From: a virus
Taxonomy: Duplodnaviria > Caudoviricetes
Virus record (IMG/VR): IMGVR_UViG_3300028833_003520
Length of the DNA stretch: 64,000 bases
Direction: 5' to 3' (one strand)
The notes under the pieces were generated by a model that worked only from the letters and a program-made list of their open reading frames with translations, had not been told where the DNA came from and did no database searches. Position numbers and translations under genes: made by a program. Shown here one piece after another: positions 3,616 through 57,579 of the stretch (position 1 is its first letter; every line of letters starts with the position of its first letter).

Positions 3616-4062
3616 ATGAATAGAAAAACCGTCAGAAGTGAAAATAGTGAAAGGAGCAGTAAGAATATGGGTACTATGTCCAAAACGAAGTCTTATGCAA
3701 AAGTGAAGGAGACCAAGTTGAAACTTCAGAAAGATGCTACTTGGCAGACAACAAAGACTGGAATTTTCAAGGCTTTGATGTTTGTTGGTCGTTGGATAGC
3801 AACAACCTTCTGTATCTATTTAGTTTCAATGATTTCAATCACAGGTCTTATTCCTTTTACAGTTGCGTATCTTGCAGGTCAGTCGGGTATGTCCGTTGGA
3901 ACTGATGCTGTAACAAGTGTAACGACTTGGGTATGCCCGTCAGTAGGAGCGACGATTATTATTTCAATCGTAACAGCAGTTATTGATGTGCAGATTTATA
4001 AGTTCTTTAAGAAGCAGTTCTCGTATCAGAGACTTGAGGATAAGAAGAACGACAAAAAGTGA
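3616..4062 (+). CDS. Two-TM membrane protein
   Basis: Two hydrophobic segments; abuts the upstream gene. Confidence 0.6.
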   Translation: MNRKTVRSENSERSSKNMGTMSKTKSYAKVKETKLKLQKDATWQTTKTGIFKALMFVGRWIATTFCIYLVSMISITGLIPFTVAYLAGQSGMSVGTDAVTSVTTWVCPSVGATIIISIVTAVIDVQIYKFFKKQFSYQRLEDKKNDKK

Positions 4063-8121: not shown

Positions 8122-10365
8122 ATGGGTTTGAAACAATCCGTTGTAATAGTCAACGAGTTTTCTATAAAGAATAAATCGGGTAAGGGTGGTTCACGAGGTG
8201 GAACACCTGGCGACTATGTAACACGATATATGGCTCGTCCTAAAGCAACCGAGGATTTGACACCTGTAAGGTTACAGGACACAGACAAGTTCATTACGAG
8301 ATATATGGCTCGTAAGGAAGCGTCTGAGCAGTGCATTTCAGTCGAAGACGAAAAGGAGCGTATGCGTGAGGCTCAGAAGTTCGGCGGCATAGCCTTTGGT
8401 TATGGCGACGTTTCTTTGTCTGACAGTAAACTTCGTTACGCCAGTAAGGATATACAGAAGGAATTCGAAAGGGGAAAGACGGTCTTAAAGACAGTCTTGT
8501 CTTTTGACGAAGAATACCTCAAATCTAACGGAATCGTTGACGAAGACTTCGAGTTCAAGGAACGAGGAGACTATCGTGGTAACATCGACCAAATGAAACT
8601 CCGTATGGCTATAATGAATGGCTTGGATAAAATGAGCAAAGACTATGATGACTTACGTTATGTAGGCGTTATACAGGTCGATACGGCTCATATACATTGC
8701 CATTTGGCTATGGTGGATGCAGGTCGAGGTAACATTATGCCTGACGGCACGCAAAGAGGGAAACTGTCTGAAAAGAACAAGCGTGATTTGAGGAGAGGAA
8801 TTGATAATTTCCTTGACGAGAAGAAGAAAGTCTTAATGATGACGAGTAATGTCTCAAGAGACAAGAGGAATGCCTTGTGCTATATCAAAAAGTTTACTCA
8901 TAAGACGATGGATGAACACGGTACTCCGCAACTTCTTATGGCTTGTCTTCCTGAAGACAAGAATCTGTGGCGTGCATCGACTAATCGCAAGGAGATGAGA
9001 AAGGCTAATGCAATAGTCAGAGATTATGTAGAAGAGGTATTGAAACAGCCCGATTCAGGTTATGAAGAGGCTATGGAGTCCATACTTCAGTATGCAGATG
9101 AGCGTCGTAGCCGTGAAGACTTGGACAACAAAGAGTATCGTATGTTGTGCAAAAATGGTCGAGAGCAGTTGGTCGAAGACTGTATGAACGGTGTTTATGC
9201 AGTATTGAAGCAAATTCCTGATGAAGAGCGTACTGTTAAGACACCTCTGCTTGATACGATGAGTATGGATTACGAAGAACTGAGCACGAAGGCACAAAGT
9301 GACGAGATGTCGATGTTCGGTTTCAGACTTCGTTCATATAATAACCGTCTGGAATATCATAAGAAGGAAATGAATAAATACCACGAGTATGTACGAATGT
9401 ACGAAGATACTCCTGATGCGGCACGTTCTTCTAAAGTGCTGTATGACTTCTTCAAGGAAGAAGAGGAGTATAATCAGAAACTCGTCGGTAAATATAGGCA
9501 TTTCCTTTCTTTCGCAATCCCTGATGAGAAATATGAGGACGATTTTACAGAACTAATGCAGTATCGTGGAAGGATGACCAATTTAAGACGATTAAAGGAC
9601 GATAAGTCCTTAAAGCGTATGAATCCTGACCGTGCTGAAGAAGAAGGACGTAAAATCTACGGACAAGCAGGCGGTAGATATGCTGCGACAAATCCAAATA
9701 TTCTTGAAACCCGACTCATCAATATGAGATTGAGATACAATCGAATGGAAGAGGATTTTAAGATGAAACTGTCCGAATACGGAATGGTAATGGGTATTAA
9801 GGACGGTAAGATGGTTGTTGAAAGGGGAGAACAGTTCCCATTTGATGATGTTAAGGCTTTAGACTTACATCACCTCGGTTACGATTGGCAGGAAGATATT
9901 ATTATTGCAAAACGAAATGTTGATAACTTCATTGAGGCGACAGACAATCGTTATGAGAAGTATCAGGCTGCAGTACAGTATCTTAAAGATTCTGACCAGG
10001 AGTTGATGATAGACCAGTTGCCTACTAAGGATATTCAGGCTATGAAGGAACTCGCAGACAGTTTGAGAACAAACCCTGTCTTGCCGAAGAGTGATGTCTA
10101 TGAAGGATATAAGCACGACGGTCGTACTGTAAGCCTTGATTTCGATTACGGCGAGGATATGCAACGAGCAGTTAAGATGACCGTTAGAAGCGTCGCAAAT
10201 GCTCCAGATTTCGACGAGAGGCGTTCTACGAGGTCTGTACCTGTTATTCCTGCTGAAGCACCTATAGAGCCTTCTGGAAGGCGTACAGGACGTAATGTAC
10301 CTGATGTTGGTAATAAAAGCCCTGATAACGATTTGGATTCTGTCAGAAGACAGAGAGGCGAATGA
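8122..10365 (+). CDS. mobL: MobL-family conjugative relaxase
   Basis: N-terminal YVTRYMAR Tyr motif, KTVLSFD, RGNIDQMKLR, YVGVIQVDTAHIHCHL (HUH); ATG 8122 after AAGGAG. Confidence 0.8.
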   Translation: MGLKQSVVIVNEFSIKNKSGKGGSRGGTPGDYVTRYMARPKATEDLTPVRLQDTDKFITRYMARKEASEQCISVEDEKERMREAQKFGGIAFGYGDVSLSDSKLRYASKDIQKEFERGKTVLKTVLSFDEEYLKSNGIVDEDFEFKERGDYRGNIDQMKLRMAIMNGLDKMSKDYDDLRYVGVIQVDTAHIHCHLAMVDAGRGNIMPDGTQRGKLSEKNKRDLRRGIDNFLDEKKKVLMMTSNVSRDKRNALCYIKKFTHKTMDEHGTPQLLMACLPEDKNLWRASTNRKEMRKANAIVRDYVEEVLKQPDSGYEEAMESILQYADERRSREDLDNKEYRMLCKNGREQLVEDCMNGVYAVLKQIPDEERTVKTPLLDTMSMDYEELSTKAQSDEMSMFGFRLRSYNNRLEYHKKEMNKYHEYVRMYEDTPDAARSSKVLYDFFKEEEEYNQKLVGKYRHFLSFAIPDEKYEDDFTELMQYRGRMTNLRRLKDDKSLKRMNPDRAEEEGRKIYGQAGGRYAATNPNILETRLINMRLRYNRMEEDFKMKLSEYGMVMGIKDGKMVVERGEQFPFDDVKALDLHHLGYDWQEDIIIAKRNVDNFIEATDNRYEKYQAAVQYLKDSDQELMIDQLPTKDIQAMKELADSLRTNPVLPKSDVYEGYKHDGRTVSLDFDYGEDMQRAVKMTVRSVANAPDFDERRSTRSVPVIPAEAPIEPSGRRTGRNVPDVGNKSPDNDLDSVRRQRGE

Positions 10366-12005: not shown

Positions 12006-12353
12006 ATGGATAACTGGATGCGAAACCTTCGAAATACTATTACTGTGTGGGGTCCAAGTCTTATCTGGACAATAATCTGTTTGGTGATTGTTTTAACACT
12101 CATTATTTTGTGTATTATTACACTTGTTCGTTTGTGTAAAGTTTTAGGAAAAATTCAAGGATTTTTTGAAGAACTTGAAGCAAATGGAGCCACGCTTGCA
12201 CAAGTAACTTATGCAAAAGCCGTAAGTCTTAAAACGATTGCAGAAACAACCGATGATATTGCAGATGAAACTGAAGGTTTGAAAGTTGTTACTGAGGCAA
12301 TTGGTTATGAAGATATGAGTGTTTATGAAAATTATAAGAAAGGGCGTGACTGA
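12006..12353 (+). CDS. Membrane-anchored hypothetical protein
   Basis: SD GAGGTG; one TM segment. Confidence 0.5.
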   Translation: MDNWMRNLRNTITVWGPSLIWTIICLVIVLTLIILCIITLVRLCKVLGKIQGFFEELEANGATLAQVTYAKAVSLKTIAETTDDIADETEGLKVVTEAIGYEDMSVYENYKKGRD

Positions 12354-12660: not shown

Positions 12661-13533
12661 ATGGATGCAGTTAAGAAACAATTAAAAATTTGGAGAATTG
12701 ATAATATTATAATTGCATTTGTAATGTCGGTTACAGTTAGTGCTTTTTGGGAAGTCAGAATGCACGGTTTTAGTCTATTTATAGGATTTTTCTTTTTAAT
12801 TGCAGTGTTAATCACTTTATGCAAAGCATATAAGTTTAATCCTTTCGTATCATTTGAACCTATTGTATTCATAATTGATATTACGAATAAGCGAAATGTT
12901 GATTATGATGAATACATAAATAACTGGGTTTTTAATAATGAAAATTACGATTTTAAGATTGAAAGAGAATCACATTTATCAACTTGGGAGAGTAATTGTA
13001 AGGATATAATTGACAGAGAAATATTCTTTAAGAAACATAGATTAAACCAGTATGCGATTGTGAAGCAGCAGGTGACCGATTATCATTATCCAATATTTCA
13101 ATGGAATTTTGTTCGTTATCATACTCGATATCGACAAGTTAATTATCAACGATATTCTTATGCTGTTGATGATTTGGATTATATTGTACAAAAATCGTAT
13201 ATTGATACTTGGGAATTAGATGCTATATGTGAAGAAAGAATACGCCAAAATGAAGAAAGTTTCGAAAGAACGCAACGCTTTTTAGAAAATAATAAGTATT
13301 GGCTTCGTTCTCGTTCTCGTTCGGTAGGACCTAAACAGCGTCAGCGTATTTTGAGAAGAGATAACTTTACTTGTCAATTATGTGGTGCAAAAGGTCCTGG
13401 TGCTGGTGGTAGTGCTGAATTAGAAGTTGACCACAAATTACCTTTTAGTTTAGGTGGAAGCGATAAAGATAGTAATTTGTGGACATTATGTAAAGATTGT
13501 AATAGAGGGAAGAGTAATGATTATATAGATTGA
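12661..13533 (+). CDS. Membrane-anchored HNH endonuclease
   Basis: Two N-terminal TMs; RDNFTCQLCG...EVDH...GG...NLWTLCKDCNRGK. Confidence 0.85.
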   Translation: MDAVKKQLKIWRIDNIIIAFVMSVTVSAFWEVRMHGFSLFIGFFFLIAVLITLCKAYKFNPFVSFEPIVFIIDITNKRNVDYDEYINNWVFNNENYDFKIERESHLSTWESNCKDIIDREIFFKKHRLNQYAIVKQQVTDYHYPIFQWNFVRYHTRYRQVNYQRYSYAVDDLDYIVQKSYIDTWELDAICEERIRQNEESFERTQRFLENNKYWLRSRSRSVGPKQRQRILRRDNFTCQLCGAKGPGAGGSAELEVDHKLPFSLGGSDKDSNLWTLCKDCNRGKSNDYID

Positions 13534-13636
13534 CGCTTAAGAAGCGATATACTATAATAATTACAATTCTTTTCGTCATTAGTTCGCTGGTCAAGATAGT
13601 TAAACAGAATCACGTTTCGTGGTTCTGTTTTTCTTT
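13530..13636 (+). ncRNA. Putative stand-alone small RNA (promoter, about 70 nt, terminator)
   Basis: TTGACG 13530-35, 17 bp, TATAAT 13553-58; 13-bp hairpin 13602-13630 plus T run; no ORF. Confidence 0.55.
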
Positions 13637-13678
13637 GTTCAGATATATTTATCGTACCATTAAAAGTACATAAATCTC

Positions 13679-22182: not shown

Positions 22183-23127
22183 ATGTTAATTGGTCCTGAT
22201 TTCAAATCGTCTAATACGCCTGACGCAATAGTGCGTTGGTACGATAAAGCCGATGTATTTCGTGTAAATAAAGAGGGCGATATTCTTCAGGTTGATTCTG
22301 ATGCGAATGCAAAGCAGCCTGGTTATTTTATACGTATGTGCATATCTGATATGACAGAGAATAGTGAGCGTTCTTATTTAAGATTTGGATTGTTTCATAC
22401 GGATGCTCCTGATGAGCCTTTGTTTATGGGTGCTCCGTTGACAGGATTGCCTGCTAATGCAATGAAGGAATTGTTAGTGACGGAAGGCAAAATCAACGAC
22501 AACGGTAAACAGTTTCTTAAGTATTTCAAGGCAGACTGTGATAACAATCAATCTGTTATTAAGGGACAGTATAAGACTGCAAAAGCCTATCACGATTTTG
22601 TTACTAAGCGTGAAGGCGAGGGTGTTTATGATTATGGTTGTTATGATATGTCAGATGAACTCGGACAGTTTTCAGACGTAGTTGAGAAGAATAAACATAA
22701 ACATCCATTTGAGTATGGATTTATCAATCTTTCAGATAAGGAAGCAGACCAATTAGGTATTCCTCATAATGAAGTATCATCTGCAGAACTTCTTTATGAG
22801 ATACCATACAATAGGAAAGATAGGGTTCGTTTGTTTGCGTCTATGAAGGCTCCTTTAGAGGGAGAGTATGAGAGAGATAGACAGTTTGTTCCTGTATCTG
22901 AATTAGGCAAGGATAAAGAGTTATTAGCGTGGCAGATGGCAGTGGATTATTATCAGATTTATTGTTCAAAGATGTCTCATCGAGTTTGTAATACATCTAA
23001 TTTTAGCCTTATGCCTGATTCTGTAAAGAATGAAATTCAAGAGCAAGAACACGCTGAATCAAAAGAAAGACGGTTGCCAAATGTTCCTGAATCACAGGAA
23101 GATAATCAAACACAGTTAGGAGAATAA
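22183..23127 (+). CDS. Hypothetical protein with RRLP tail; shares a domain with 23989-25263
   Basis: ATG 22183 after AGGAG; ends ERRLPNVPESQEDNQTQLGE. Confidence 0.7.
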   Translation: MLIGPDFKSSNTPDAIVRWYDKADVFRVNKEGDILQVDSDANAKQPGYFIRMCISDMTENSERSYLRFGLFHTDAPDEPLFMGAPLTGLPANAMKELLVTEGKINDNGKQFLKYFKADCDNNQSVIKGQYKTAKAYHDFVTKREGEGVYDYGCYDMSDELGQFSDVVEKNKHKHPFEYGFINLSDKEADQLGIPHNEVSSAELLYEIPYNRKDRVRLFASMKAPLEGEYERDRQFVPVSELGKDKELLAWQMAVDYYQIYCSKMSHRVCNTSNFSLMPDSVKNEIQEQEHAESKERRLPNVPESQEDNQTQLGE

Positions 23128-26621: not shown

Positions 26622-26657
26622 AACTTTAGATATTGATAGAAAGGAAAGTAGTGGGTT

Positions 26658-28163
26658 ATGGCAGATATAGATGAAAAGAATTATCAACAGCATCATTATG
26701 ATGATTATGCCAAGTTAAATGGGTTCTACAATGATGAGGAGTACAATAATTCTTACATTAACGGACTTTCTACGAAGTATGTTAAGGATTATAAGAATTA
26801 TAAATCAGCCCTTATTTCAGTTCCTACTGAAGTATCGTCTAATGGTAGAGCCTTAATTACATTCAAGAATTATAATGAGGCGGTCAAAGGCAAAGGTTAT
26901 GTCAATCTGAGGTTCCCTCAGAATTACGAGATTAAGACCATCTGTAAGGATGCCGATAATAAAGATGTCATTTATCATATGACGGCAGACCAGTTGAACG
27001 AGTGTCGTTCGGCTGCGAAGAATAAGACAGATGAAGTCTTAAAGTCAGTTACGTTTGACTTTGCTGATGAGAGCAAGATTAAGTGTCGATTTGATTTTGA
27101 TGATTATAGTCGTCAGTATGACCTTAAAGACCTTAATAGTGCTCTTGAGTATCTGCAGATTAGAAATTCTGCAAAGAATCTTATCACTGACGATACGATG
27201 ATTTACGCAAGAGTTAATAAAGCGTATTGCACGAAGGATTTCCAAGACAAGATGTCCTACTACTCTGGCGACAATTATTGCTTCGAATTAGGTATGCTTA
27301 AAGACACATACAATAAGGGATGTGGCTTGAATGTCAACATTCCTTTTGATGAGAAGTATAATCATTTCAATAGCGTATTAGGAACTGCGACAGACTCGCT
27401 TACATTGTCCCTGACAAATCATTATGAGAGGAGTTTACCTCGTGATGATAAGGAAGGAGATTGGACTATTACAGAGTCTCACAGCGACGTAGCCGCAGCA
27501 TACAGAATACCGTCGGTGCTGGCAACGGCTGGTGTGGGTATGCGTTTTGAAACTCGTGAAGATGCAGATATGCAGGCACGGTCTTCAATGAGTGATTTAG
27601 TGTTAGCGATGAACGATAAGGAAAAGGTAGAGCCTACCGAAACAAGTAGGTACGGAAAGATGCCTATCGAGTATTTCCTTGTTCATATCTCTGATAGAGA
27701 TAGTTATGTCTTATGTGCAGGTCCGAAGGGTGCTTCTGAAGGACTTGACGGAAGACGTTTACCGAGTGTAGGCGGAGTACCTATGTACGAAGGATTCGTT
27801 GGTATGACGAAGCGTCATTTCGGAGGTTTTGGATTAGGCGACACAGTATGTATCGCAAAGGAGAACAAAAACGGAGAAACGGCATTGGAGCCTATTGACG
27901 CAGTACCTTTGGTACAGCAGTCAGTTGTCAAAGATGAAGGTAAGTTCTTGGAATTAGAGCATTCACTTTTACAGAAATTACCGTTAGAAGTCAGACAAGC
28001 AGAGGTTGAGAATAAAAAGAAGAATGCTCCAGATACTAAACCTTGGATAAGGGAATTAAGTGTAGGAGTAGATTCTGATGTTAAATCACCAAAGCCAAAG
28101 AAGAGGCGACTGCCTGATAGAACGTATGAACCTGGTGTTGAAACACCTGAACTTGAGTTGTAA
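26658..28163 (+). CDS. Hypothetical protein with RRLP tail
   Basis: SD GAAAGGA; ends KRRLPDRTYEPGVETPELEL; internal GRRLPSV. Confidence 0.7.
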   Translation: MADIDEKNYQQHHYDDYAKLNGFYNDEEYNNSYINGLSTKYVKDYKNYKSALISVPTEVSSNGRALITFKNYNEAVKGKGYVNLRFPQNYEIKTICKDADNKDVIYHMTADQLNECRSAAKNKTDEVLKSVTFDFADESKIKCRFDFDDYSRQYDLKDLNSALEYLQIRNSAKNLITDDTMIYARVNKAYCTKDFQDKMSYYSGDNYCFELGMLKDTYNKGCGLNVNIPFDEKYNHFNSVLGTATDSLTLSLTNHYERSLPRDDKEGDWTITESHSDVAAAYRIPSVLATAGVGMRFETREDADMQARSSMSDLVLAMNDKEKVEPTETSRYGKMPIEYFLVHISDRDSYVLCAGPKGASEGLDGRRLPSVGGVPMYEGFVGMTKRHFGGFGLGDTVCIAKENKNGETALEPIDAVPLVQQSVVKDEGKFLELEHSLLQKLPLEVRQAEVENKKKNAPDTKPWIRELSVGVDSDVKSPKPKKRRLPDRTYEPGVETPELEL

Positions 28164-36650: not shown

Positions 36651-38387
36651 TTATATTCTGATAAGACCATTTATTGTCTGTCTCTGAAGGGGTACACAGA
36701 CCTTATCTTGGTCAGGTCCGTGATAACCTGGATTCATCCAATCCTTCAGGTCATAAACGAGGATTAAAGGCTCAGGTTTGAGCATTTTATCACCTGTCCT
36801 TATAGCCTTTGTCCTGCCAGGACAAATCCAACCGCAATCGGTTGTCTCAATTACTGCAAGAAGGTCAGTGATAAATGTGTTTTTACCTTGAAGCGAGCCG
36901 TTAGGCGAGTTCTTCTTAAACCACGCCTTATATCCATCGTAAAGGAATGCAAACGGCAGGACATCCCATACACAGCAAGGTAAGAATTCGTCAACGAATT
37001 GCTTGATAGGGTCGTTGAACATTTTGTAATCGTCCAATGCCGTGACGCATACATCAGGTTCAGAAAGTTCGTAATAGTTCATATTGAGAACTTTCCACAA
37101 AACATATTCGAGAACTTCTGTTCTACCAAGATAGTCATCTTTGATGTATCTTCTTTCGTGACCTGTGAAACACTTGTCAAAGGGCACGAATAATTGTCTT
37201 CTGTAGAATGAGTCGGATTTATCTTTAATTCGAGGCATCTCGTTGATACACTGAACCATAAATCCGTAGAACTGATAGGCGATAGGTGTCTTAAATTTTC
37301 TGTTCAACTGAATGACATCATTCGTGATGATGGCTTTCAGATTGGCAGCCTTGTCGATAAATTCACCGACGTTATTCTCGTCAACGATAATAGCGGTAGC
37401 CTGAAGCAGAGGTTCGAGCATAAAGTCTTTGCTGAAATCCGACAGAGGAATTGAAGCATAACTTTCTTTTCCACAAAGTTGTCTCATCAATTCGCAGAGC
37501 GTACCCTTACCGTTGTTACCTTTGTTGGAATAGAACCAAGCACTCTTGTTCCAACTAACGTGCGGTCTGATAATAGCACCTAAGATTTCCCAAAGGAGAT
37601 TTACGACCTGAGGGTTATCAGACAGTTCGTTCATCCAAGACTCGACATCCCAATCCGTATTATCAATAGGATTGTGGATAACAATGTTCGTGGCGTTAGG
37701 ATTGTAGTTGACACGAGATTTAGCGATGAAAACATACTTTGGGTCAAAATCATAGAGTTGTTTATCGGCATAATTAAAGATGCCGTTATTGACCGCAATC
37801 AAGTCTCTATCGGTGCATCTGACTTTTCTCTCTGCAAGGTCTTTCATTGCCATCTTAACTTCACTTATACCTTTAGAAGTGATGTTGTACTTAAATTGCC
37901 GAATGAGTTCGTTGAAGACATTATCTTTAGTTACATAGATACCCTTGTCGTGACCTTTATCTTGATAGATAGCAAGAAGGTCATACTCAACATCAGCGTT
38001 GGCTCCTGCACAAGCGATACGACAAATAGGGTACATAAACAGCAAAATATCCGCTATCTGCGATTCAGACAGGGAAGAGGGAAGTTGCCATTTTTCGCCT
38101 TTTTCAGCGTTAGCGTTATGTGCCTGGAAACAATCTATTGTAAGACGCAGTAAATCCTGTTGGATTTCTGACGGTGTTTTGCTTTTGTTGAAGAGGTTGC
38201 TCTCAAGATAATGTTTAGTGATGAGTTTCATATAGTCGTCTTTGGAACACAGTTCTGCAGAATTGGATAAATCAGCAAGAACTCTTGTATATTCAAGACC
38301 ATATGTAGCATCAGCATCAACGGTAGTGGCAGTATCAGTTTCAGATTCTAAAATTTCATCAGATACGATATTCTCGTCCTTAGGCAT
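36651..38387 (-). CDS. Phage/plasmid P4-family (D5-like) primase-helicase, SF3 helicase portion
   Basis: D5_N LIAVNNGIF, Walker A GNNGKGT, Walker B IIVDEN, RIKDKSDSFYRR, C-terminal wHTH-like DPIKQF...LYDGYKAW. Confidence 0.85.
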   Translation of the reverse strand: MPKDENIVSDEILESETDTATTVDADATYGLEYTRVLADLSNSAELCSKDDYMKLITKHYLESNLFNKSKTPSEIQQDLLRLTIDCFQAHNANAEKGEKWQLPSSLSESQIADILLFMYPICRIACAGANADVEYDLLAIYQDKGHDKGIYVTKDNVFNELIRQFKYNITSKGISEVKMAMKDLAERKVRCTDRDLIAVNNGIFNYADKQLYDFDPKYVFIAKSRVNYNPNATNIVIHNPIDNTDWDVESWMNELSDNPQVVNLLWEILGAIIRPHVSWNKSAWFYSNKGNNGKGTLCELMRQLCGKESYASIPLSDFSKDFMLEPLLQATAIIVDENNVGEFIDKAANLKAIITNDVIQLNRKFKTPIAYQFYGFMVQCINEMPRIKDKSDSFYRRQLFVPFDKCFTGHERRYIKDDYLGRTEVLEYVLWKVLNMNYYELSEPDVCVTALDDYKMFNDPIKQFVDEFLPCCVWDVLPFAFLYDGYKAWFKKNSPNGSLQGKNTFITDLLAVIETTDCGWICPGRTKAIRTGDKMLKPEPLILVYDLKDWMNPGYHGPDQDKVCVPLQRQTINGLIRI

Positions 38388-38449
38388 TGTCTATTCTCCT
38401 TTCTCAAGATTTACGCTTTTAAGCAGAGTGCGTAAAACTGCGGTGGTCA

Positions 38450-40721: not shown

Positions 40722-41762
40722 TCATTTTAGTTTAATCGTTTTGATATTAGGGTTGTCGAATATCTTATTATTCACTTCCCTCATAACAGCCGTAGTAAGT
40801 GACCTGACACCTGTGCCTTCGTCGAAAGCAGCATTAGCGACTTGTTCGATATATGCGTCGGTGGCAGTAATTTTAATGCCGAATTCTGAGCCGATACGGA
40901 TAAGAGGGGAGTAGGTTTGATTACGCATAATATTAGCGAAATCATTTGCATCAAATTCGTCAATGAAGATAATATCTTCGATACGACCTCTGAGTTCAGG
41001 CGGAAGAATTTTGTTAACCTCGTCTAATGTGGGAACTTTAGCATTCTTTCGGTGTGTTATATCACAATTGGAAAATCCAATACCACTTATACTCGATTGT
41101 GCGTATTGGGCAAAAGAACCTGCAAAGATACAAACAACATCAGTACAGTCTATGGTTTCAATAGTACCATTTTTAGTAGGTCGATAAGGAAAACTCATAC
41201 CCTCAATCATTCGATAAAGTTCAGGCAAAGCAGATGCATTATGTGTATCTTGGAAGTTATTAGTAAGATATTTGTCAAACTCGTCTATTACTAATATAGG
41301 AACCATATTAGGATAATCTTGACTCTTATTTTTAAGAATATAGAGGTTGGCTTGAATATTGTTTTCTCCTGTGTAACTGGAGTTGATACAATTTGCACCG
41401 TCAATGATTTGCATACAAGGGTATATCTTCTCAAGAATACGGAGAAGTTCGGTTTTTCCGCAGCCAGATTGACCTACGGTAAGTAAAGCACCTTTAGGAC
41501 GATATCCGTTAAGGATTCGCCATAAAAAGATGCTGATAGTCTTTTTATAAGTTTCGTTACCGTATAATTGAGCATCAAGGACATCATAAATTTGTTTTGG
41601 TGTCCAGGAAGCGGAAATCTGTGGAATGGGTGTAACAGATTTACGTGCCGAAGTTTTCTTCGATGAGGTTCGGTAGAACGAATCGCCGAGAACTTTGTAC
41701 GGCGTTTTATCTTTCAAAATACTGCTCTTATAAAAAGACACCTGAACCGAAGGTTCTGCCAT
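40722..41762 (-). CDS. ClpX/HslU-like AAA+ ATPase without a Zn finger
   Basis: GQSGCGKT, VIDEFDK, IFAGSF, PPELRGRI, TGVRSL. Confidence 0.8.
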   Translation of the reverse strand: MAEPSVQVSFYKSSILKDKTPYKVLGDSFYRTSSKKTSARKSVTPIPQISASWTPKQIYDVLDAQLYGNETYKKTISIFLWRILNGYRPKGALLTVGQSGCGKTELLRILEKIYPCMQIIDGANCINSSYTGENNIQANLYILKNKSQDYPNMVPILVIDEFDKYLTNNFQDTHNASALPELYRMIEGMSFPYRPTKNGTIETIDCTDVVCIFAGSFAQYAQSSISGIGFSNCDITHRKNAKVPTLDEVNKILPPELRGRIEDIIFIDEFDANDFANIMRNQTYSPLIRIGSEFGIKITATDAYIEQVANAAFDEGTGVRSLTTAVMREVNNKIFDNPNIKTIKLK

Positions 41763-41989: not shown

Positions 41990-43060
41990 TGTTATCATCG
42001 TAATGTAACTTATGCAAAAGGCATTTTACTCCTTAAGAAAGAAAAGGGCAGGGATGTGTGTTACCCCGTCCTTTTCTTTTTGTTAGGCGTGTATTCCAAT
42101 TTTTCCATCGAATGATATAATAGGAGAATCAAAGTCCAAGTTACCTCGCAAGACATTGATAAAAGTGGTATGTTTATTCTTACCAAGTTAGGTTATGAGA
42201 TAGAAGAGTCAAGTCAGCCGCTTGGCTCTTTTATTTTATCAAAGACTGTGGTAGATTAGTTGTTATAGTAGTAGTTTAACTGACGGTAAATATGGACTAC
42301 TTACTGGTTTCCTTTCTATGCAAAGAGCAGTCCGAAGAGGGCTGTTCTTTTAAGTTAGAAGGTGATACAATAGCAATGTAATTAGTTATGCTAACTAACT
42401 TTTTACAATTCAGATACAGATGTATTCTTCATCGAGCATTAAGGACAGAAGGCACTCTGTCCTTTTTGTTTGGTGTATGCTATAATCGGTTCAAGGCTTA
42501 TGATATTAACTCATTCGCCACCTTTCAAAAAAGATGCAAAGAGGACGGTTATTTACCGCCCTTTTTGTTTAGAAGATGTCATTTATTTGATAGAATTGAT
42601 GTTATAATGAATGTATAATTAGAGTAGTCAGGAAAGCCATAAGACTATCTCTTTGGGATTTTGCAGTAAGGGTGGGTATATCCCACCTTTATTGTTTATG
42701 ATATAATCAGTCTGTTGCCATTGCCATTGGTGACGAGAATAAACTTGAGGCACACATATGACGCAAGATAGGCAGAGGTTTTCCTCTGCTTATTTCGTTT
42801 TTACAGATTTGTCCAGGATAAGAAGTAACGCAATTGTAATGCACAAGTGTTATAGTTGTGCTATAATACGATTACTGATTATCTATTCACGACCTTAGGT
42901 ATTTCAGTTTTCAAGATTCGAGATAAAGCAGTCATTAGCAGTCCTTGTGGCTGCTTTTTCTTTTTGGTATAATGATTGTAGAAAGGTGATTACATCATCT
43001 TTTTGTTTCTCATTAACGGCAGGGAAGGACAGGAGCAACATCGCCTGTCCTTTTCTTCGT
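41990..43060 (+). ncRNA. Tandem array of nine putative small RNA genes
   Basis: Extended -10 (TGnTA(T/C)(A/C)(A/G)T) hexamers at 41993, 42116, 42264, 42366, 42481, 42603, 42702, 42862 and 42968, each followed within about 90-110 nt by a GC hairpin plus T run. Confidence 0.65.
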
Positions 43061-43183
43061 TTTACAGTATGAGATTTTATTCTAATACTGGTTTCAATCT
43101 CTTTTACAAGAAAAGAACTCGGCTATCAAAACAATAAGCGACGGTTGTTTCGGAGCATTATTAGTTTTGGGTAGGGAAGAATC

Positions 43184-43378
43184 GGGGACAAAGTAGGGAA
43201 TAGGTGGGGACAAATCGGGGACATTTCAGGGACAATGTGAAGATAGGTGGCTTGAATGTGATTGATTAACATCTCAATGTGAATATCAAAGGCTATTATG
43301 TGAAGAAATGTGATTGAAGCAGCAGATTGATGTGAAGATTTGAGCATCAAATGTGATTAAATAGACGACTGATGTGAA
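43184..43378 (+). repeat. Helically phased GGGACA (x4) and ATGTGA (x8) repeats
   Basis: ATGTGA starts at 43235, 43256, 43277, 43298, 43308, 43330, 43351, 43372; GGGACA at 43185, 43207, 43218, 43229. Confidence 0.7.
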
Positions 43379-43930
43379 TTTCACGCAGTTTTACACAGAA
43401 AAACTGGTTAAAATTTAGTGATAGGTGCTTTTCTGAGAGGTTATCTCTAAAAAAGTCGCCTATTTTTTCGTGATAACGGTTTGCGAATGGAAATATTCCA
43501 AAAGGAATAATATTATTCTTATAGGAATATTTTTATGACTGACAGGAATATCGTTATTCCTAATAGCATATCCGAACGGCATATTTCGAAGCGTAATTTC
43601 GTCCCAATGTTTTACAGGGAAGGGGATGAGAGTGCTCGTATTGGTATCAGGCGGCGGAATTTTGAAAATTCTCGGCGAGTTTTTGAAATCAGAGAGGTTG
43701 TTTTCGAAATTTACCTCAAAATTTGCACCGAAATTTTTCATAATGAGAAGTGGTTCGGACAGCAAATTATGTATAGAAATGTATGGGCAAAATATGTTTT
43801 ATGTAGATTAAACAGAGTTTTGCAGCGTAATTTTACATCAGAAAGAGGAGCCAAAAAGTGTGTCACGCTCTTGAGCGACTCCAAAAATGTTAAGTTTAAT
43901 GTAGATTAAACCCTTGTTTTTGAGAAAATT

Positions 43931-44291
43931 TTCTATACATTCTATACGTTTCTATACCCCTTTTCTATACATTCTATACACAAGAATCCTTAAATTTAGG
44001 GCTTTATAGCCATTTGTATAGATTGTATAGAAAATATTTAAGTCAATTATAGAGCCTTTTTATTTTTTCGTGTAGCACACTTCCCATTTTTCTCAGTGTA
44101 AATCAAAAGACAATTTTTAAGATAATAAATGACTTGTAAAAATTCTATACTTTCTATACAAAGTACCGCAAACCCTTATAAAATAAGGCTTTGAGGCGTA
44201 TAGAAATGAAATAGCGTTTCTATACATTCTATACACGAACCTCTGAAACGCCTATGAAATAAGGGTTTTGGGCGTATAGAATTTTCTATAC
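43931..44291. repeat. TTCTATAC octamer cluster (direct and inverted), putative replication origin
   Basis: 10 forward and 3 reverse perfect copies, separated by imperfect palindromes such as AAACCCTTATAAAATAAGGCTTT. Confidence 0.7.
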
Positions 44292-44364
44292 ACGCTTTTA
44301 GCAGGTATTTTCCAGTGTAAAATACCGCAGTTTGATAAGATTCAAATTTTTTTGTGTAATACTA

Positions 44365-48921: not shown

Positions 48922-50742
48922 ATGCTTTTTGCTGAATCTGATAAAAATTATAAGTATGCACAGGAACATTTTCCTTGCTTGAATACTTTTACACAGCAGT
49001 TGAAAGCACCTGGATTTGAAATTCAGAGCCGTGAGAAAGAGATGGACTCCATCGAAGCGGCTCTTAATCGTCCTGAACTTTGTAACGTGTTACTTTTAGG
49101 AGAGCCTGGCTCTGGTAAGACAGCACTTGTGCAGTCTGTAATGATGCACGATACCAAGAGGCTTTATCTTGAAGTTGACCTTTCCAAGATGATTGCAGAT
49201 ACAAATGACGTTAACGAGATGGCTACAAGGCTTAAGTCCTTGTGCGACGAGGTAACGATATTCCGTAAGGAAATGCAGACTGAACTTGTTCTTTTTATGG
49301 ATGAGTTCCATCAGATTATGATGTTGTCTAATGCGGCGGCTGAAGCAATGAAGCCGTTGCTTGCTGATTCAGGCACACGAGGCGTGCGTATCATAGCAGC
49401 CACAACAGAAGCAGAGTTCAGAATGTATATTGCTCCGAACCAGCCGTTGGTGGAGCGTCTGCAGAGAATCAGACTCAAAGAGTTGGATAAGCAGGCAACT
49501 ATCAATGTTCTTAAGAACAGAGCCAAGATATATGGCGTAGAAGACCAAATCACTGAGTATAACAATATATACGGACTTATCTATGAATATACGCAGAGAT
49601 ATATCCCTGCGAACGCTCAGCCTCGTAAATCATTGCTCGTATTCGATGCGATGATTGGTTGGCATAATTCAAAGGCGAGACCTTTGGATAAGGCACTCCT
49701 TGCTGACGTTATTTATGAGTCAGAAGGTGTCAATGTTACTTTTAGAGTAGATGCTACATCAATCAAGAAGGAACTTGACAAGTATGTATTTGCTCAGGAC
49801 TTTGCGACAAGCGTTATTGAGCAAAGGCTTCAGATTTGTGTTGCTGACCTTAATAATAAGTCAAAGCCTATGAGTTCATTCTTATTCACAGGTTCAACTG
49901 GTGTAGGTAAGACTGAGGTTACGAAGCAGTTAGCCCGAATTCTTTTCGGTGATAATGCGAGAACAAGTCTTATCCGTTTTGATATGACAGAATATGCTAC
50001 AGAGGACTCTCTGGAGAGATTCAGAGCAGAACTTACACAGCGTGTTTGGAATAGACCTTATTCTATCGTTCTTTTGGACGAGATTGAGAAGGCGTGTGCT
50101 CCTGTTACACGAGTTCTCTTGCAGGTTTTGGATGATGGCAGACTTATGGATGAGAATAACCGTGAGGTTTCATTCCTTAACTCGTATATTATCCTTACTA
50201 CCAATGCTGGTAATGAGATTTATAAGACCATTGCCCAGTATTCTCCTGATGATACAGGTTCAGGTAAGGAATTCCATAGGTATGAGAAACTCATCAGACA
50301 GTCTATTTCAAGCACGACAGGTGATAATAGATTCCCTCCTGAGTTGCTTGGACGTATCGACTGTATCGTGCCGTTCCAACCTCTTTCAGAGGAAACGAAG
50401 AAGAAGATTGTTAAGCATAAGTTGGAAGAGTTAATCAAGAAGGTTTCTGATATACACAATGTTGCTCTCAATTATGACCAGAGGGTCATACAGTACATTG
50501 TTGAAGATAACCTTGACTCTGACTCTGATGCAGGTGGTGCACGTACTGCAATCGCTAAACTCGAATCTGAGGTTTATACCGAAGTATCAAGAGTTATCAA
50601 CACTTGCCCTGATGCCATCAGATTGAGAATCGTTGTTGACGGTAAGATGATGTGCGAAGACAAGACGCAACTTGAATCGACGGCTTCTATCAGCGTTAAG
50701 GTTGGCAGTGAGACGAGACAAGTTAAGAAGACCTACTATTAA
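48922..50742 (+). CDS. ClpA/ClpB-like double AAA+ ATPase lacking N- and M-domains
   Basis: GEPGSGKT/FMDEFH and GSTGVGKT/LLDEIEKA, RFDMTEY, LLQVLDDGRL, FPPELLGRID. Confidence 0.9.
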   Translation: MLFAESDKNYKYAQEHFPCLNTFTQQLKAPGFEIQSREKEMDSIEAALNRPELCNVLLLGEPGSGKTALVQSVMMHDTKRLYLEVDLSKMIADTNDVNEMATRLKSLCDEVTIFRKEMQTELVLFMDEFHQIMMLSNAAAEAMKPLLADSGTRGVRIIAATTEAEFRMYIAPNQPLVERLQRIRLKELDKQATINVLKNRAKIYGVEDQITEYNNIYGLIYEYTQRYIPANAQPRKSLLVFDAMIGWHNSKARPLDKALLADVIYESEGVNVTFRVDATSIKKELDKYVFAQDFATSVIEQRLQICVADLNNKSKPMSSFLFTGSTGVGKTEVTKQLARILFGDNARTSLIRFDMTEYATEDSLERFRAELTQRVWNRPYSIVLLDEIEKACAPVTRVLLQVLDDGRLMDENNREVSFLNSYIILTTNAGNEIYKTIAQYSPDDTGSGKEFHRYEKLIRQSISSTTGDNRFPPELLGRIDCIVPFQPLSEETKKKIVKHKLEELIKKVSDIHNVALNYDQRVIQYIVEDNLDSDSDAGGARTAIAKLESEVYTEVSRVINTCPDAIRLRIVVDGKMMCEDKTQLESTASISVKVGSETRQVKKTYY

Positions 50743-53202: not shown

Positions 53203-56200
53203 GTGGCAAAGCGAAATTGGGATTTAGTTCGTAAACAGCAGAACGCTGATAAGTTGCAATATCGTGATGTATATGAAGACCAGCAGATGGAACGAAGCAA
53301 GTTGCCTGCAAAGCAGACAGCGACGGCTCGTACCATATTTGCTATCGTAGTTGCTCTTATGGCTGCAGGTGCAGCGTATGCGATTGCGTGTGTCTTCGGT
53401 TCATTGTTTAGCGGTTTAGGGGATATAGGAAGTACAGATACAGGTTCAGGGGGACAGGGTACTGTCATAGAACAGCCTTCGGAAACCGCTTCATCAACAG
53501 GTGTCAGAATCGAGAGTGGCACTGTTATTAAGGATTCCGTTGTTGTTATCAGTACAACGACAGGTGAGACATTAGATACTTGGGTTTATACGAACCTTGA
53601 TAACGGTGACGTAAGGTATATCTGTGATGCTCATCCTGGTTATTCTTTTGCAACAGAGTATGAAATCGCAGATGGTTACAAAAATGGCGTATGGTATTTA
53701 GATGAAGCCGCACAGCAGAGTGCTACATCAGTTTATTGGGATTACCATACGACGTGGATGACACTTTATCGTGGTGACCCGAACGGGGAACACACGGAAA
53801 TAGATACTTGGGAAAATACAGGTGGTGTTTATGGTGAGCAGTACACTTGCTCTAATCATCCGTCTTTCAGTTTTAGCGACCAAGAATCCGTTGAGGCTCA
53901 TTATGATTCCGAAGGTAATTGGTCAGATACAGTAGTTTCACAAGGTAATGCAGGACAGGAAAGTTCTACAGATAGCGGTGATATGCCGTCTATATCCTTT
54001 GGTGTGGACTGGACTCCTTCATTCGGTAAGATTTTATTTGCAATAGCCGTTGGTGGTATTGTTTTTGCTCTTTTACACACGGCTATGATGCGTAACTTGA
54101 AAGCACAGAATATGCTTTCAGATACCTCTGATATTAACCAATATCAGAACGACCAGCATATTGCTCTCCCTGAAGAAATTCAGGAGAAGTTTGACTGGTT
54201 TCCCGATGTTGGTGCGACCTCGGATGTACAATTCTCGTCAATGATTTCGCATATGGCTCTTTCTAACAAGGGTATTAAGAAAGTCAAGTTCTCGAAGCGT
54301 GCAGATAAGGATATCTACGACGCAGACGGAGATATTGAATACTATAAGGGCGAAGTTCTTCTTGATGATAATGGACAGCCGATTCAAACAGAGGTTCCGA
54401 TGTTTGATGAGCAGTTTATGGAAGACCTTTTTACTGCTTCAGGTGCTCCCCCGAAGGATAAAACGATTCGTAAGTATTACGATGCGACGAAGATTAAGTA
54501 TAATCCTGACGGAAGCAATCGAGATAAACTTGGCAAGTATAACACAGTTGCAGACCTTATCAATGCCGATTGGGAATTGCCTTATTATGAACCTCAAAGA
54601 CCTGCAGGTGCATATATCGTAGATACTGCTCCTGTAAATACGATGGTCTTGGCTATTACCCGTGCAGGTAAAGGTCAGACTGTAATCGAGCCTACGCTCG
54701 ATATGTGGATGCGTGAGAGAAGACCTAACAATATGGTTATAAATGACCCGAAGGGTGAGTTGCTCGTTAAGAACTATGTTAGAGCAACTGTTAGAGGTTT
54801 CCAAGTTGTTCAGTTTAACCTTATCAACGCTATGAAAACCGACATTTATAATCCGTTAGGAATGGCAGCAGAAGCCGCACGAGAAGGAGACTTCACCAAA
54901 TGTGCAATGTACGTCGAGAACATCGCAGATGTATTCTTCCCTCTTGACGGTGGTGATGACCCTGTGTGGCCTAATGCTGCGAACAACGCATTTAAGAGAG
55001 CATCTTATGGTCTTATCGACTATTATCTTGAGGAAGAAAAGGAGTTACGCCTTTTCGCCGAAAGAACGAAGATGGACGAAAAGATACTTGAGGCTAAATT
55101 GGACGAGATGTGGGGTAAAGTTACGCTTTACAACACTTATCAGTTGTTCGTTCAGTTGACTTCGAAGAAGTTAAAGAACCCTTCTGTTGAATTCGCAAAG
55201 AAGGCAAAAGAGGGTGAATATGATAATCTTTCTGATGAGGATTATGATATCGAACTTAATAAGGTTGAGAGACAGTCTTTACTTTGGGAAGACAAGCCTG
55301 AGTGTGACCTGTTGACCTTGTACTTCAATGCAACAGATGCGTTGCCGAGAAACTCAATGAGAACTCTCGTTGCAAACGCAAACAATGCGTTGAAGGCGAT
55401 GGCTGGTGCTGAGAAGATGATGGCATCCGTTTACGGTATTGCTATCACGGCTATGTCGTTCTTCACAGACCCGACGATTTCAACACTGACATCAGGCACA
55501 CCTTCGCAGAATGTTGACCTTGCAGGTCTTTCATTCCCTCGAAGATTAGGCGTAAGATTTAACTCAGACTTCGTGCATAACTATCATCTGATTGGTATGC
55601 AGGCAAAATGGATGAGTTACGAGGACGATAAGTTTACGAAGGAACTCGGTAAAGACTTTTATCACGAAGACCTTATTACAAGAGAAGGTTGGGCAAAGTA
55701 TTACTTCAAGGGCAAGTACCCTAATGATGTTGCTTATGTTAAGTTATCTATCGTTAATCCGAAGACGGAATTGACAATCAGAACATTCTACTTCCAGTTT
55801 AAGAAGAACTATCAGACTTCATTGGACGGACGTAAGTACGTGCTTGACCCTGTACTCAATGAGAAGATAGTTAAGAATGGTATTCTGACAGAGTTGAGAC
55901 CGTTCAGACAGGAGACGAAGGATGGTAAGCAGGTATTAGTACCGCTTGCTATGGGTGAAAAGCCTGATGCGAACACAGTTTATAAGAAAGGTAAGACGAC
56001 TTTTGCTCAGGATAAGATTATCAATATCACTGGCGACTCCACGAGGGGACAGGTTCAGACCAATGCTATTATCAGAACGATGGCTCGTTATGCAGAAAAG
56101 CCGAAGATGGTATTCTTGGTTACACCTCCTCACTTGATGAAGTATGCGAAGTTGATTCTTATTCTTATCAAGCAGTTGGTTGACTTGAACTTCGACCAGT

Positions 56201-57579
56201 CTTATATGACGAAATCCAATCAGAAGCCTCTCTATAAGACGAGATTTATGTTGGATGAGTTAGGTAACCTTCAGTCCGAAGGACACGGTATTTCAGGCTT
56301 TGAAACGATGCTTTCTATCGGTCTTGGTCAGGAACAGCAGTTTACTCTTATCTTGCAGACATTACAGCAGTTGAGAGACGTTTATGGAGACTCTGTTGAT
56401 AAAATCGTTCAGGGTAACACATCTAACATTGTGTTCCTTAAATCAACGGATGACTCAATGCTTGATACTCTGCAGAAAATGTCTGGTACAACGCATAAGT
56501 CTTTTACTGATTCAAAGACAGTAACAAGGGATATGCAGGAGATTTTCCAAGGTATGAGTGCTAACGAAGGTAAGGCATCTTATACGATGACTACTAAGGA
56601 AGTGCCTGTTATTTCGTACAACGATATGGCGTTCATTTCTGAGCGTAATAGTATTGTGTTCCGTGCAGGTGATGCACCGATTTGGAACAGAAACGAGACT
56701 ATCCTTCCGATGTCTTGGAGACTTTTCAAGAATACTATTACACAGCCTGGTAAGGAATATACCTTGCAGACGATACCGACACTTTCTTCGGCTATCGACT
56801 TCGATGTACGTAAGAATCAGCCTGACTTCCAGAAGATGCTTGATAAGCGTATGGCTCAAGCAAATAAGGCTCCTGATGCAAAGAGTTTGTATCAGATGTC
56901 TTATGATTTCACTGATTATCAGATGGAACAGCAGGACCCTGATATTCTCGCAGATGAAATTATGGATATCATTAACACATATATCCGTGAGGCAAATACT
57001 GACGAGGAAGAAGAGGAAGTATTTGACTATGATTTCGGCGAAGACGATATGTGGGGTTTTGCAGAAGATGATAGTTCAACACAGGAAATGGTCAGTGCTA
57101 TCGCTAATGGACAGTCAATCCCTGTTAATGGCGTAGATAAGACCTTTGTAGGTGTTGATAAAACTGCTTCAGAGAAGCGTTTCGCAGGCGGTCTCTTATC
57201 ACCTGATATGCTCGTCAATGCGTCAGGTATAAACCATAGTCTTGATAAAGACATCATTAAGGTTTACACAGATATTAAAGGCGACTTATGGCGTGATACA
57301 GCGTACTTTGTTGTACGCAATGGAGACCTTTATGGTATTAACAATGAGCCTTATATCATTAAGGCAGATAACTCCGAAGCCCTTGAGGTATTGAATAATG
57401 CCGCCAAGGATGAAGATAGTAACGTCTATGGTGACGAGGATATTGATATATCTGAAGTCCATTCATTCGGCACTTATACAGTAACGGATGGTTTCTATCG
57501 CTTCCTTGCAGGGCAGAAGAGGTGGTCTTTCGCAAACGGTAAGTTTGAAGAGGCTATGTATCGACAATTAGATTCGTAA
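53203..57579 (+). CDS. virD4: Type IV coupling protein VirD4/TraG with an enlarged inter-TM loop
   Basis: Two TMs, Walker A AITRAGKG, INDPKGE, YNPL, Walker B FMLDELGN, LQTLQQLRDVYG. Confidence 0.9.
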   Translation: MAKRNWDLVRKQQNADKLQYRDVYEDQQMERSKLPAKQTATARTIFAIVVALMAAGAAYAIACVFGSLFSGLGDIGSTDTGSGGQGTVIEQPSETASSTGVRIESGTVIKDSVVVISTTTGETLDTWVYTNLDNGDVRYICDAHPGYSFATEYEIADGYKNGVWYLDEAAQQSATSVYWDYHTTWMTLYRGDPNGEHTEIDTWENTGGVYGEQYTCSNHPSFSFSDQESVEAHYDSEGNWSDTVVSQGNAGQESSTDSGDMPSISFGVDWTPSFGKILFAIAVGGIVFALLHTAMMRNLKAQNMLSDTSDINQYQNDQHIALPEEIQEKFDWFPDVGATSDVQFSSMISHMALSNKGIKKVKFSKRADKDIYDADGDIEYYKGEVLLDDNGQPIQTEVPMFDEQFMEDLFTASGAPPKDKTIRKYYDATKIKYNPDGSNRDKLGKYNTVADLINADWELPYYEPQRPAGAYIVDTAPVNTMVLAITRAGKGQTVIEPTLDMWMRERRPNNMVINDPKGELLVKNYVRATVRGFQVVQFNLINAMKTDIYNPLGMAAEAAREGDFTKCAMYVENIADVFFPLDGGDDPVWPNAANNAFKRASYGLIDYYLEEEKELRLFAERTKMDEKILEAKLDEMWGKVTLYNTYQLFVQLTSKKLKNPSVEFAKKAKEGEYDNLSDEDYDIELNKVERQSLLWEDKPECDLLTLYFNATDALPRNSMRTLVANANNALKAMAGAEKMMASVYGIAITAMSFFTDPTISTLTSGTPSQNVDLAGLSFPRRLGVRFNSDFVHNYHLIGMQAKWMSYEDDKFTKELGKDFYHEDLITREGWAKYYFKGKYPNDVAYVKLSIVNPKTELTIRTFYFQFKKNYQTSLDGRKYVLDPVLNEKIVKNGILTELRPFRQETKDGKQVLVPLAMGEKPDANTVYKKGKTTFAQDKIINITGDSTRGQVQTNAIIRTMARYAEKPKMVFLVTPPHLMKYAKLILILIKQLVDLNFDQSYMTKSNQKPLYKTRFMLDELGNLQSEGHGISGFETMLSIGLGQEQQFTLILQTLQQLRDVYGDSVDKIVQGNTSNIVFLKSTDDSMLDTLQKMSGTTHKSFTDSKTVTRDMQEIFQGMSANEGKASYTMTTKEVPVISYNDMAFISERNSIVFRAGDAPIWNRNETILPMSWRLFKNTITQPGKEYTLQTIPTLSSAIDFDVRKNQPDFQKMLDKRMAQANKAPDAKSLYQMSYDFTDYQMEQQDPDILADEIMDIINTYIREANTDEEEEEVFDYDFGEDDMWGFAEDDSSTQEMVSAIANGQSIPVNGVDKTFVGVDKTASEKRFAGGLLSPDMLVNASGINHSLDKDIIKVYTDIKGDLWRDTAYFVVRNGDLYGINNEPYIIKADNSEALEVLNNAAKDEDSNVYGDEDIDISEVHSFGTYTVTDGFYRFLAGQKRWSFANGKFEEAMYRQLDS

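Follow-up and report, generated by a model that had tools for sequence, protein, structure and literature searches.

Nine unrelated predicted small-RNA genes, biased toward anti-ribosome-site sequence, lie head to tail beside the presumed origin of a conjugative element

The window that we analyzed is a 64-kb stretch of DNA belonging to a 243.5-kb contig that is present in several rumen-type metagenomes; the window and ~11 kb to its left make up the part of the 243.5 kb that our analysis covers. Judged from its gene content, the contig is a conjugative element of Firmicute type, an assignment confirmed by a MobL relaxase (8122-10365), a VirD4/TraG-type coupling protein of 1458 aa (53203-57579), ClpB-like ATPases, including a two-domain protein at 48922-50742, and a 666-aa protein with a phage-lysozyme domain (7895-9895 of contig L007). 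Most of the remaining genes of the element have no Pfam match. A P4/D5-family primase-helicase gene, the likely replication initiator, occupies 36651-38387 on the minus strand, and an AAA ATPase gene lies at 40722-41762, also on the minus strand. Between the ATPase gene and two iteron fields (43170-43400 and 43930-44300) is a 1.1-kb stretch free of genes, and we presume that the two iteron fields are the replication origin. In the field at 43170-43400, which differs from that at 43930-44300, units built on a GGGGACA core recur every 11 nt and give way to units with an ATGTGA core.

The gene-free stretch is filled by nine consecutive, non-homologous, protein-free units, U1 to U9, which occupy 41990-43066 on the plus strand directly upstream of the iteron fields. 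The layout is the same throughout: a body of 33-67 nt follows an extended -10 box (TGnTAnAAT type) and leads into a strong intrinsic terminator made up of a stable hairpin and a U tract. With transcription starts placed from the -10 boxes, the predicted RNAs are 78-114 nt long. U1 (41990-42086) carries its extended -10 box at 41990-41998, and its predicted RNA of ~82 nt would start at ~42005 and run through a terminator hairpin at 42038-42079. Extended -10 boxes likewise open U2 (42113-42241; ~114-nt RNA, terminator 42198-42236 with four G.U pairs), U3 (42261-42353; ~78-nt RNA, terminator 42322-42350), U4 (42363-42473; ~96-nt RNA, terminator 42434-42471), U5 (42478-42571; ~79-nt RNA, terminator 42536-42568), U6 (42600-42697; ~83-nt RNA, terminator 42663-42695) and U7 (42699-42806; ~93-nt RNA, terminator 42760-42799). 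U8 (42859-42964) has a -35/extended -10 promoter that matches the consensus at 10 of 12 positions, a predicted RNA of ~91 nt (42874-42964) and a terminator at 42920-42962, and U9 (42965-43066) closes the array with an extended -10 box, a predicted ~87-nt RNA and a terminator at 43015-43061.

This nine-unit array is a real feature. Nine of the 31 extended -10 boxes on the plus strand of the 64-kb window fall inside a single kilobase (P ~1e-10), all nine promoters are on the plus strand in register with hairpin-plus-U-tract terminators, and the next -10 box follows each terminator at a distance of 6-57 nt. The hairpins are also asymmetric with respect to strand: taken together, they contain 24 G.U pairs when read as plus-strand RNA versus 4 when read as minus-strand RNA, and their summed minimum free energy is -171 versus -119 kcal/mol, which indicates that they have been shaped for the plus-strand RNA. 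Neither strand of the array holds an open reading frame with a Shine-Dalgarno (SD) sequence, except for minus-strand mini-ORFs of 2 and 4 codons, and we could thus rule out coding mini-genes as the content of the array. We also rejected several noncoding identities. CRISPR, solitary repeats of RNA anti-CRISPRs, and guide-RNA arrays would involve identical repeats or a common scaffold, which the array does not have; type I and type III toxin-antitoxin RNA loci do not fit a locus with no small toxin ORF and no repeated antitoxin unit; and a reading of the units as tRNA or tmRNA was likewise discarded.

A repeat search found no direct-repeat family or tandem repeat within 41990-43066, and the only likeness between units that it returned consisted of short similarities in U tracts and -10 boxes. 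The nine terminator hairpins differ from one another in sequence. At the terminator ends, U1, U4, and U5 (42071-42090, 42457-42476, and 42560-42575) share a similar 3' arm and U tract, in which a C-rich arm is followed by five T, a G, and three T, and the terminator ends of U1 and U9 are alike at 17 of 21 positions. This likeness suggests either the common descent of some of the cassettes or a shared design constraint.

We found no homologous array in any of the Rfam, plasmid, phage, viral-contig, or metagenome collections that we searched, and there is therefore no conservation or covariation signal to draw on. More specifically, Rfam 15 gave no match in the window at gathering score, and at E <= 10 it gave only chance-level matches, all far below gathering scores; a blastn search with the array found no match among PLSDB plasmids or INPHARED phages, nor did a search with a 28-mer of U3 find one in JGI metagenome contigs or IMG/VR. 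Two identical contigs (L001 and L002) differ from ours by 0 and 1 SNP, and the single SNP lies outside the array.

The flanking genes and iterons were more informative about relatives. The ATPase beside the array has no relatives in GTDB genomes or IMG/VR, and in the protein database its identical copies are followed only by relatives at <=50% identity. The contigs of these relatives (L003-L006, with ATPases 46-50% identical) carry the same short iteron and have an 85-aa gene in the place of the array. When GTDB genomes were scanned for the iteron, the replicon module proved to have one real relative there, in a Lachnospiraceae metagenome-assembled genome (MAG): a contig of 199 kb that bears the iteron six times at its end and encodes a primase 58% identical to ours. 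The 17-mer core of the iteron occurs in several copies and in both orientations (43930-44300 of the window, 3150-3720 of L005, and 6300-7198 of L076), and, on this sequence evidence, the shared core defines a replicon family. The shared iteron and the 58% identical primase suggest a Lachnospiraceae-type host for this family. On the 199-kb MAG contig, we found neither an sRNA array nor a strong antisense partner for the start of the primase encoded there; at its other end, the contig has an analogous but unrelated repeat field (L114, 540-1000). Given that relatives with the same replicon parts do without the array, we regard the array as a lineage-specific insertion beside the origin.

Several of the units carry stretches complementary to ribosome-binding sites. 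The first-pass annotation had described U1 and U5 as carrying complements of an SD plus ATG and had pointed to a U3 string whose complement lies at the ribosome-binding site of the gene at 26658, and we recovered each of its quoted strings in place (42020-42037, 42512-42526, 42308-42319, and 26636-26647). The U1 seed (42020-42037) complements an SD, a 4-nt spacer, and ATG; its anti-SD part is unpaired, and its anti-start part sits inside the stem of a 5' hairpin. The U5 seed (42512-42526) likewise complements SD, spacer, and ATG, with the anti-SD part in a single-stranded linker, and the anti-SD seed of U3 (42308-42319) includes an 8-mer identical to the 16S 3' tail. The complement of this U3 12-mer at 26636-26647 is 11 nt upstream of the ATG at 26658, and the caution with which it had been reported, that it may be due to chance, is warranted: by our own estimate for 128 kb, ~5 matches of at least 12 nt are expected in the window and 8 are present, so a lone 12-mer is at chance level. 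We also agree that the window contains no long perfect target, the longest antisense match to mRNA-sense sequence being 13 nt.

Two isolated units elsewhere in the window have the same design as those of the array. U10 (13530-13640, plus strand) combines a consensus -35/-10 promoter with a predicted ~78-nt RNA, a pyrimidine-rich single-stranded 5' end, and a terminator. U11 (57772 to 57650, minus strand) has an extended -10 box at 57772-57764, a terminator, and an anti-(SD plus spacer plus AUG) seed at 57711-57694 in an accessible linker. Just upstream of the U11 promoter, at 57876-57813 on the minus strand, are two copies of a palindrome of ~19 nt, and these operator-like sequences suggest that the U11 sRNA may be separately regulated. 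In ensemble folding, the seeds of U1, U3, U5, U9, U10, and U11 are unpaired, and the pyrimidine-rich tract lies in an accessible linker between the 5' stem-loop and the terminator in U1, U3, U5, and U11 and at the free 5' end in U10. Anti-SD motifs are clear in U1, U3, U5, and U11, weaker in U6, U9, and U10, and absent from U2, U4, U7, and U8. U7 carries a tandem anti-start motif in its 5' hairpin loop. The predicted U1 RNA opens with 16 nt that match the sense strand exactly at 12204-12219, inside the gene at 12006-12353, and 12 of these 16 nt recur at 3692-3703, inside the gene at 3667-4062, with no flanking similarity; by our own estimate ~0.03 such cases are expected, and we consider this sharing mildly, though not clearly, beyond chance.

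We compared the array bodies with the 64 translation-initiation regions (TIRs) of the window, each taken from -35 to +25, and found a statistical bias toward start regions by several measures. A stretch of at least 6 nt from the 16S 3' tail is present in three of the nine bodies, where dinucleotide shuffles give 0.74 (p ~0.03). Complementary 9-mers land in the 64 TIRs 43 times versus 14.2 +/- 5.2 for shuffled bodies, a count that none of 500 shuffles reached, and versus 9 for the same bodies in sense orientation, which is an exact control for composition. The excess persists at K=10, with 17 antisense matches versus 3.7 in shuffles and 3 in sense, and K=8 behaves alike. Unit-TIR pairs with an unbroken run of at least 11 bp that includes at most one G.U pair number 10 against 2.5 +/- 1.7. 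The composite motif CAT-N3-8-antiSD, for which the expectation was taken from the non-TIR background of the window, occurs on the antisense side of 26 of the 64 real TIRs, and it is found at three sites in 541 nt, in U1, U5, and U11, where 0.34 would be expected (P=0.005); when only the nine bodies of the array are counted, there are two sites versus ~0.26 expected (P ~0.03 by our own arithmetic). In cofolds of full-length RNAs with TIRs, the mean ddG is -6.4 kcal/mol versus -4.5 for coding-region controls; plain duplexfold energies are too noisy for this comparison, with interior coding sites scoring equal to TIRs.

The bias is unevenly distributed, being due chiefly to U3, then to U1, U5, and U11, and more weakly to U6, U9, and U10; about half of the units show it. 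U3 is the broadest binder, with a cofold ddG of -8 or lower for 64% of TIRs versus 20% of coding controls. The bias is also largely indifferent to whose TIRs are used. Against 40 foreign TIRs with equally strong SDs, drawn from unrelated contigs, the bodies gave 0.75 matches per TIR of at least 9 bp versus 0.91 for the element's own TIRs, 0.30 versus 0.44 at 10 bp or more, and 0.07 versus 0.17 at 11 bp or more. That foreign TIRs are matched nearly as often suggests that the seeds recognize strong ribosome-binding sites in general, and any specificity must then come from flanking pairing. We conclude that the set as a whole carries anti-ribosome-site sequence, and that this is mostly generic anti-SD sequence. 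The earlier proposal that the array RNAs silence translation, of host genes, competing elements, or distant element genes, is borne out in part. Enrichment at ribosome-binding sites and start codons relative to shuffled units is present among the window's TIRs, and complementarity exceeds that of both shuffled and sense bodies; however, it is mostly generic and confined to about half of the units. A further remark, that CAT occurs in several units, proved uninformative, with 11 CAT in the bodies versus 7.6 expected (P=0.14).

Among individual pairings, that between U8 and the primase start region is the best specific candidate and the only one with some statistical support. Two blocks of U8, 42893-42903 and 42908-42918 on the plus strand, are complementary to the primase TIR at 38378-38411 on the minus strand, where they would pair with primase mRNA positions -24 to -14 and -1 to +9. 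The two 11-bp blocks are colinear, include one G.U pair each, lie on both sides of the SD, and take in the AUG. Family-wise, over every unit and TIR, 3 of 400 shuffle sets reached the two-block score of this pairing, and the primase TIR is the unique best two-block site for U8 in 128 kb, that is, on both strands of the window. The cofold ddG of the pair is -20.3 kcal/mol, whereas the next TIR reaches -10.3 and the best among 70 coding controls -9.9. Other comparisons are less favorable. When the body of U8 is shuffled, the minimum cofold ddG over the 64 TIRs averages -16.3 +/- 2.6 and reaches -23.2, so that, family-wise, -20.3 is an outlier by only ~1.5 standard deviations. In the cofold measure, the primase TIR tends to be sticky toward any RNA, and this generic stickiness accounts for its low mean rank across units. 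In addition, U2, U3, and U4 have two-block scores equal to that of U8 at places that are not TIRs, so that only one of the nine top hits is at a TIR. The predicted U8-primase pairing is therefore suggestive, and on balance we hold it to be doubtful rather than probable.

Other candidate pairings within the element are weaker than that of U8 with the primase. U3 has a perfect 12-mer on codons 2 to 5 of gene 34902, together with anti-SD pairing, and U1 could form 12 bp with gene 34048, from the SD to position -1. Candidate pairings are also predicted between U1 and the ClpB-like gene 48922 and between U4 and the RecD2-like gene 13748. For both U2 and U4, the longest perfectly complementary run (13 nt in each case) maps within the coding sequence of a single gene of unassigned function (22183-23127), at 22687-22728 and 22892-22923, and each run is accompanied by a second block of 9-10 bp; this co-occurrence could be due to chance (p ~0.25) or could reflect targeting of the coding region.

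The account that we somewhat favor, and to which we attach slightly better than even confidence, is that the units are small RNAs transcribed by the host and that about half of them act by occluding ribosome-binding sites, with genes of the element as the likeliest targets and U8 as a possible brake on the primase. The transcription, in vivo pairing, repression, and target identities that we infer would run as follows. The host's primary-sigma RNA polymerase would transcribe nine independent genes rightward from the extended -10 promoters, and each RNA would end at its own intrinsic terminator. U1, U3, and U5 clearly, U6 and U9 more weakly, and the orphans U10 and U11 would each expose a pyrimidine-rich stretch complementary to the SD, a complementarity that in U1, U5, and U11 would continue across the spacer and the start codon. 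Most likely, the RNAs would act in trans in the manner of LhrC, RsaE, RNAIII, and SprD, pairing with mRNAs at their ribosome-binding regions and so keeping the 30S subunit from binding; the element's own genes are the likeliest targets. From 4.5 kb away, U8 may clamp onto the start of the primase-helicase gene, which would amount to a trans version of the antisense control of a plasmid replication gene and would fit the position of the array beside an iteron origin.

Several other explanations deserve consideration. The RNAs might be genuine base-pairing regulators with true targets outside the element, in host mRNAs, phages, or competing plasmids, in which case the matches to the element's own TIRs would be a generic consequence of anti-SD seeds. 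The near-equal matching of TIRs from unrelated contigs is what this explanation would predict, and it sits well both with the ceiling of 13 nt on perfect mRNA-sense matches in the 64-kb window and with the 15-19-nt anti-(SD-spacer-AUG) stretches of U1, U5, and U11, which have no cognate there. When we searched outside the element, however, exact seed complements in IMG/VR numbered 0, 3, and 4, which is the level expected by chance, and none extended past the seed; near-matches with up to three mismatches in the Lachnospiraceae MAG, our proxy host, were equal to a reversed-pattern control. In these searches, nothing singled out host defence genes or competing elements as targets. We consider outside targets unlikely, if still a serious contender. 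A further reading, in which the array is a modular antisense battery and each cassette is an independently acquired, exchangeable silencer of one gene's translation start, whether of host, phage, rival plasmid, or the element itself, strikes us as improbable.

Alternatively, what matters might be transcription as such, or the promoter and terminator modules in the DNA, and not RNA pairing: the array could activate or insulate the origin, titrate RNA polymerase, or be a set of swappable promoter-terminator cassettes, with the anti-SD tracts being incidental. All nine units point toward the iteron fields that the array abuts, the units are very tightly packed (6-57 nt from each terminator to the -10 box that follows), four units lack any anti-SD tract, and relatives with the same iterons do without the array. 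Yet this explanation accounts neither for the orientation-specific excess at start regions (43 versus 9) nor for the placement of the tracts in accessible linkers, and it is at odds with the design shared by U10 and U11 far from the origin and with the lack of a conserved module across units beyond the -10 box and the U tract; we think it rather unlikely. Finally, the SD-plus-ATG strings could be a by-product of the minus strand, as the starts of mini-ORFs or of decayed genes, leaving the plus-strand RNAs without a seed function. Strong SDs do precede an ATG at 42024 and at 42514 on that strand, and their frames stop after 4 codons (to 42010) and 2 codons (to 42506), respectively. These mini-ORFs, opposite U1 and U5, mirror the seeds, though, have no promoter, and at 2-4 codons encode no plausible product; there are no systematic minus-strand promoters, nine plus-strand promoters stand in register with terminators, and the G.U asymmetry indicates hairpins selected on the plus strand. 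We regard such an origin of the strings as highly improbable.

Returning to the reading of the units as host-transcribed small RNAs, several known systems offer points of comparison. Judged by sequence, all nine units look like self-contained noncoding genes with a promoter, a short RNA, and a terminator, and none has sequence or structure homology to an RNA family described in Rfam 15. In T4-type phages, small ORFs are flanked by PeSL (promoter-early stem-loop) cassettes, a conserved module that occurs repeatedly. These cassettes resemble the array in having tandem terminator-like stem-loops, each with a promoter immediately after, on a mobile genome; unlike them, the array has neither a conserved repeated module nor small ORFs. 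Antisense control of plasmid replication genes is exemplified by CopA/CopT of R1, RNAI of IncB/I plasmids, and RNAII of pMV158. In these systems, a small RNA from the replication region pairs with the start of the rep mRNA and limits its translation, which the predicted U8-primase pairing would match. However, RNAs of the CopA/RNAI/RNAII type are cis-encoded, arising from the strand opposite the rep leader with full complementarity, whereas 4.5 kb separate U8 from the start of the primase gene (38387, minus strand), and the predicted pairing of U8 is of 11 plus 11 bp.

Trans-acting sRNAs are also carried on mobile elements of other Firmicutes. The Spr RNAs of S. aureus islands are island-borne sRNAs that act in trans. 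Plasmid-borne examples are XrrA and XrrB of pXO1 (PMC7843513); like the Spr RNAs, these are mobile-element noncoding RNAs that pair in trans, as we propose for the array. They are single genes or pairs with defined regulators and host targets, and not a nine-gene heterologous array at an origin.

The closest parallels are with LhrC1-5 of Listeria monocytogenes and other anti-SD sRNAs of low-GC Gram-positive bacteria, which likewise have their own promoter and terminator and yield a short RNA (PMC4132741). LhrC blocks the lapB SD by means of the single-stranded segment that joins its two stem-loops, and a C/U-rich anti-SD motif is also used by RNAIII, RsaE, SprD, and FsrA (PMC4132741). The seed layout of U1, U3, U5, and U11, with the tract just 5' of the terminator, is that of known SD-blocking sRNAs, and several LhrC genes lie side by side, as do the units of the array (PMC4132741). 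The LhrC copies are homologous siblings, however, which are under the control of one regulator and carry UCCC motifs, whereas the array comprises nine unrelated units with CUCC/UCCUU-type motifs. It also differs from LhrC in its location on a conjugative element beside an origin, in having no Rfam match, and in that its targets are predicted only.

By analogy with these known Gram-positive small RNAs, the RNAs of the array probably block translation starts, for which that of the primase gene is one candidate. Since anti-SD seeds are a textbook feature of Gram-positive sRNAs, such a mechanism would not surprise a specialist. We view the array as regulators of a known kind in a new arrangement; what is unusual is that nine unrelated sRNA genes lie head to tail at an origin. 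Provided that its RNAs are expressed and functional, the array would, to our knowledge, be the densest heterologous set of trans-acting small-RNA genes reported on a conjugative element. The pairing of U8 with the primase, if true, would mean that antisense control of plasmid replication can be exerted by trans-encoded RNAs as well as by cis-encoded ones. Were the units instead a battery of exchangeable silencers, a giant conjugative element with its own RNA polymerase would reprogram translation after entry or fight competitors, by means of a layer of RNA-based control that has no described counterpart among conjugative elements. More broadly, if our reading is correct, large elements of gut Firmicutes would carry their own post-transcriptional regulators.
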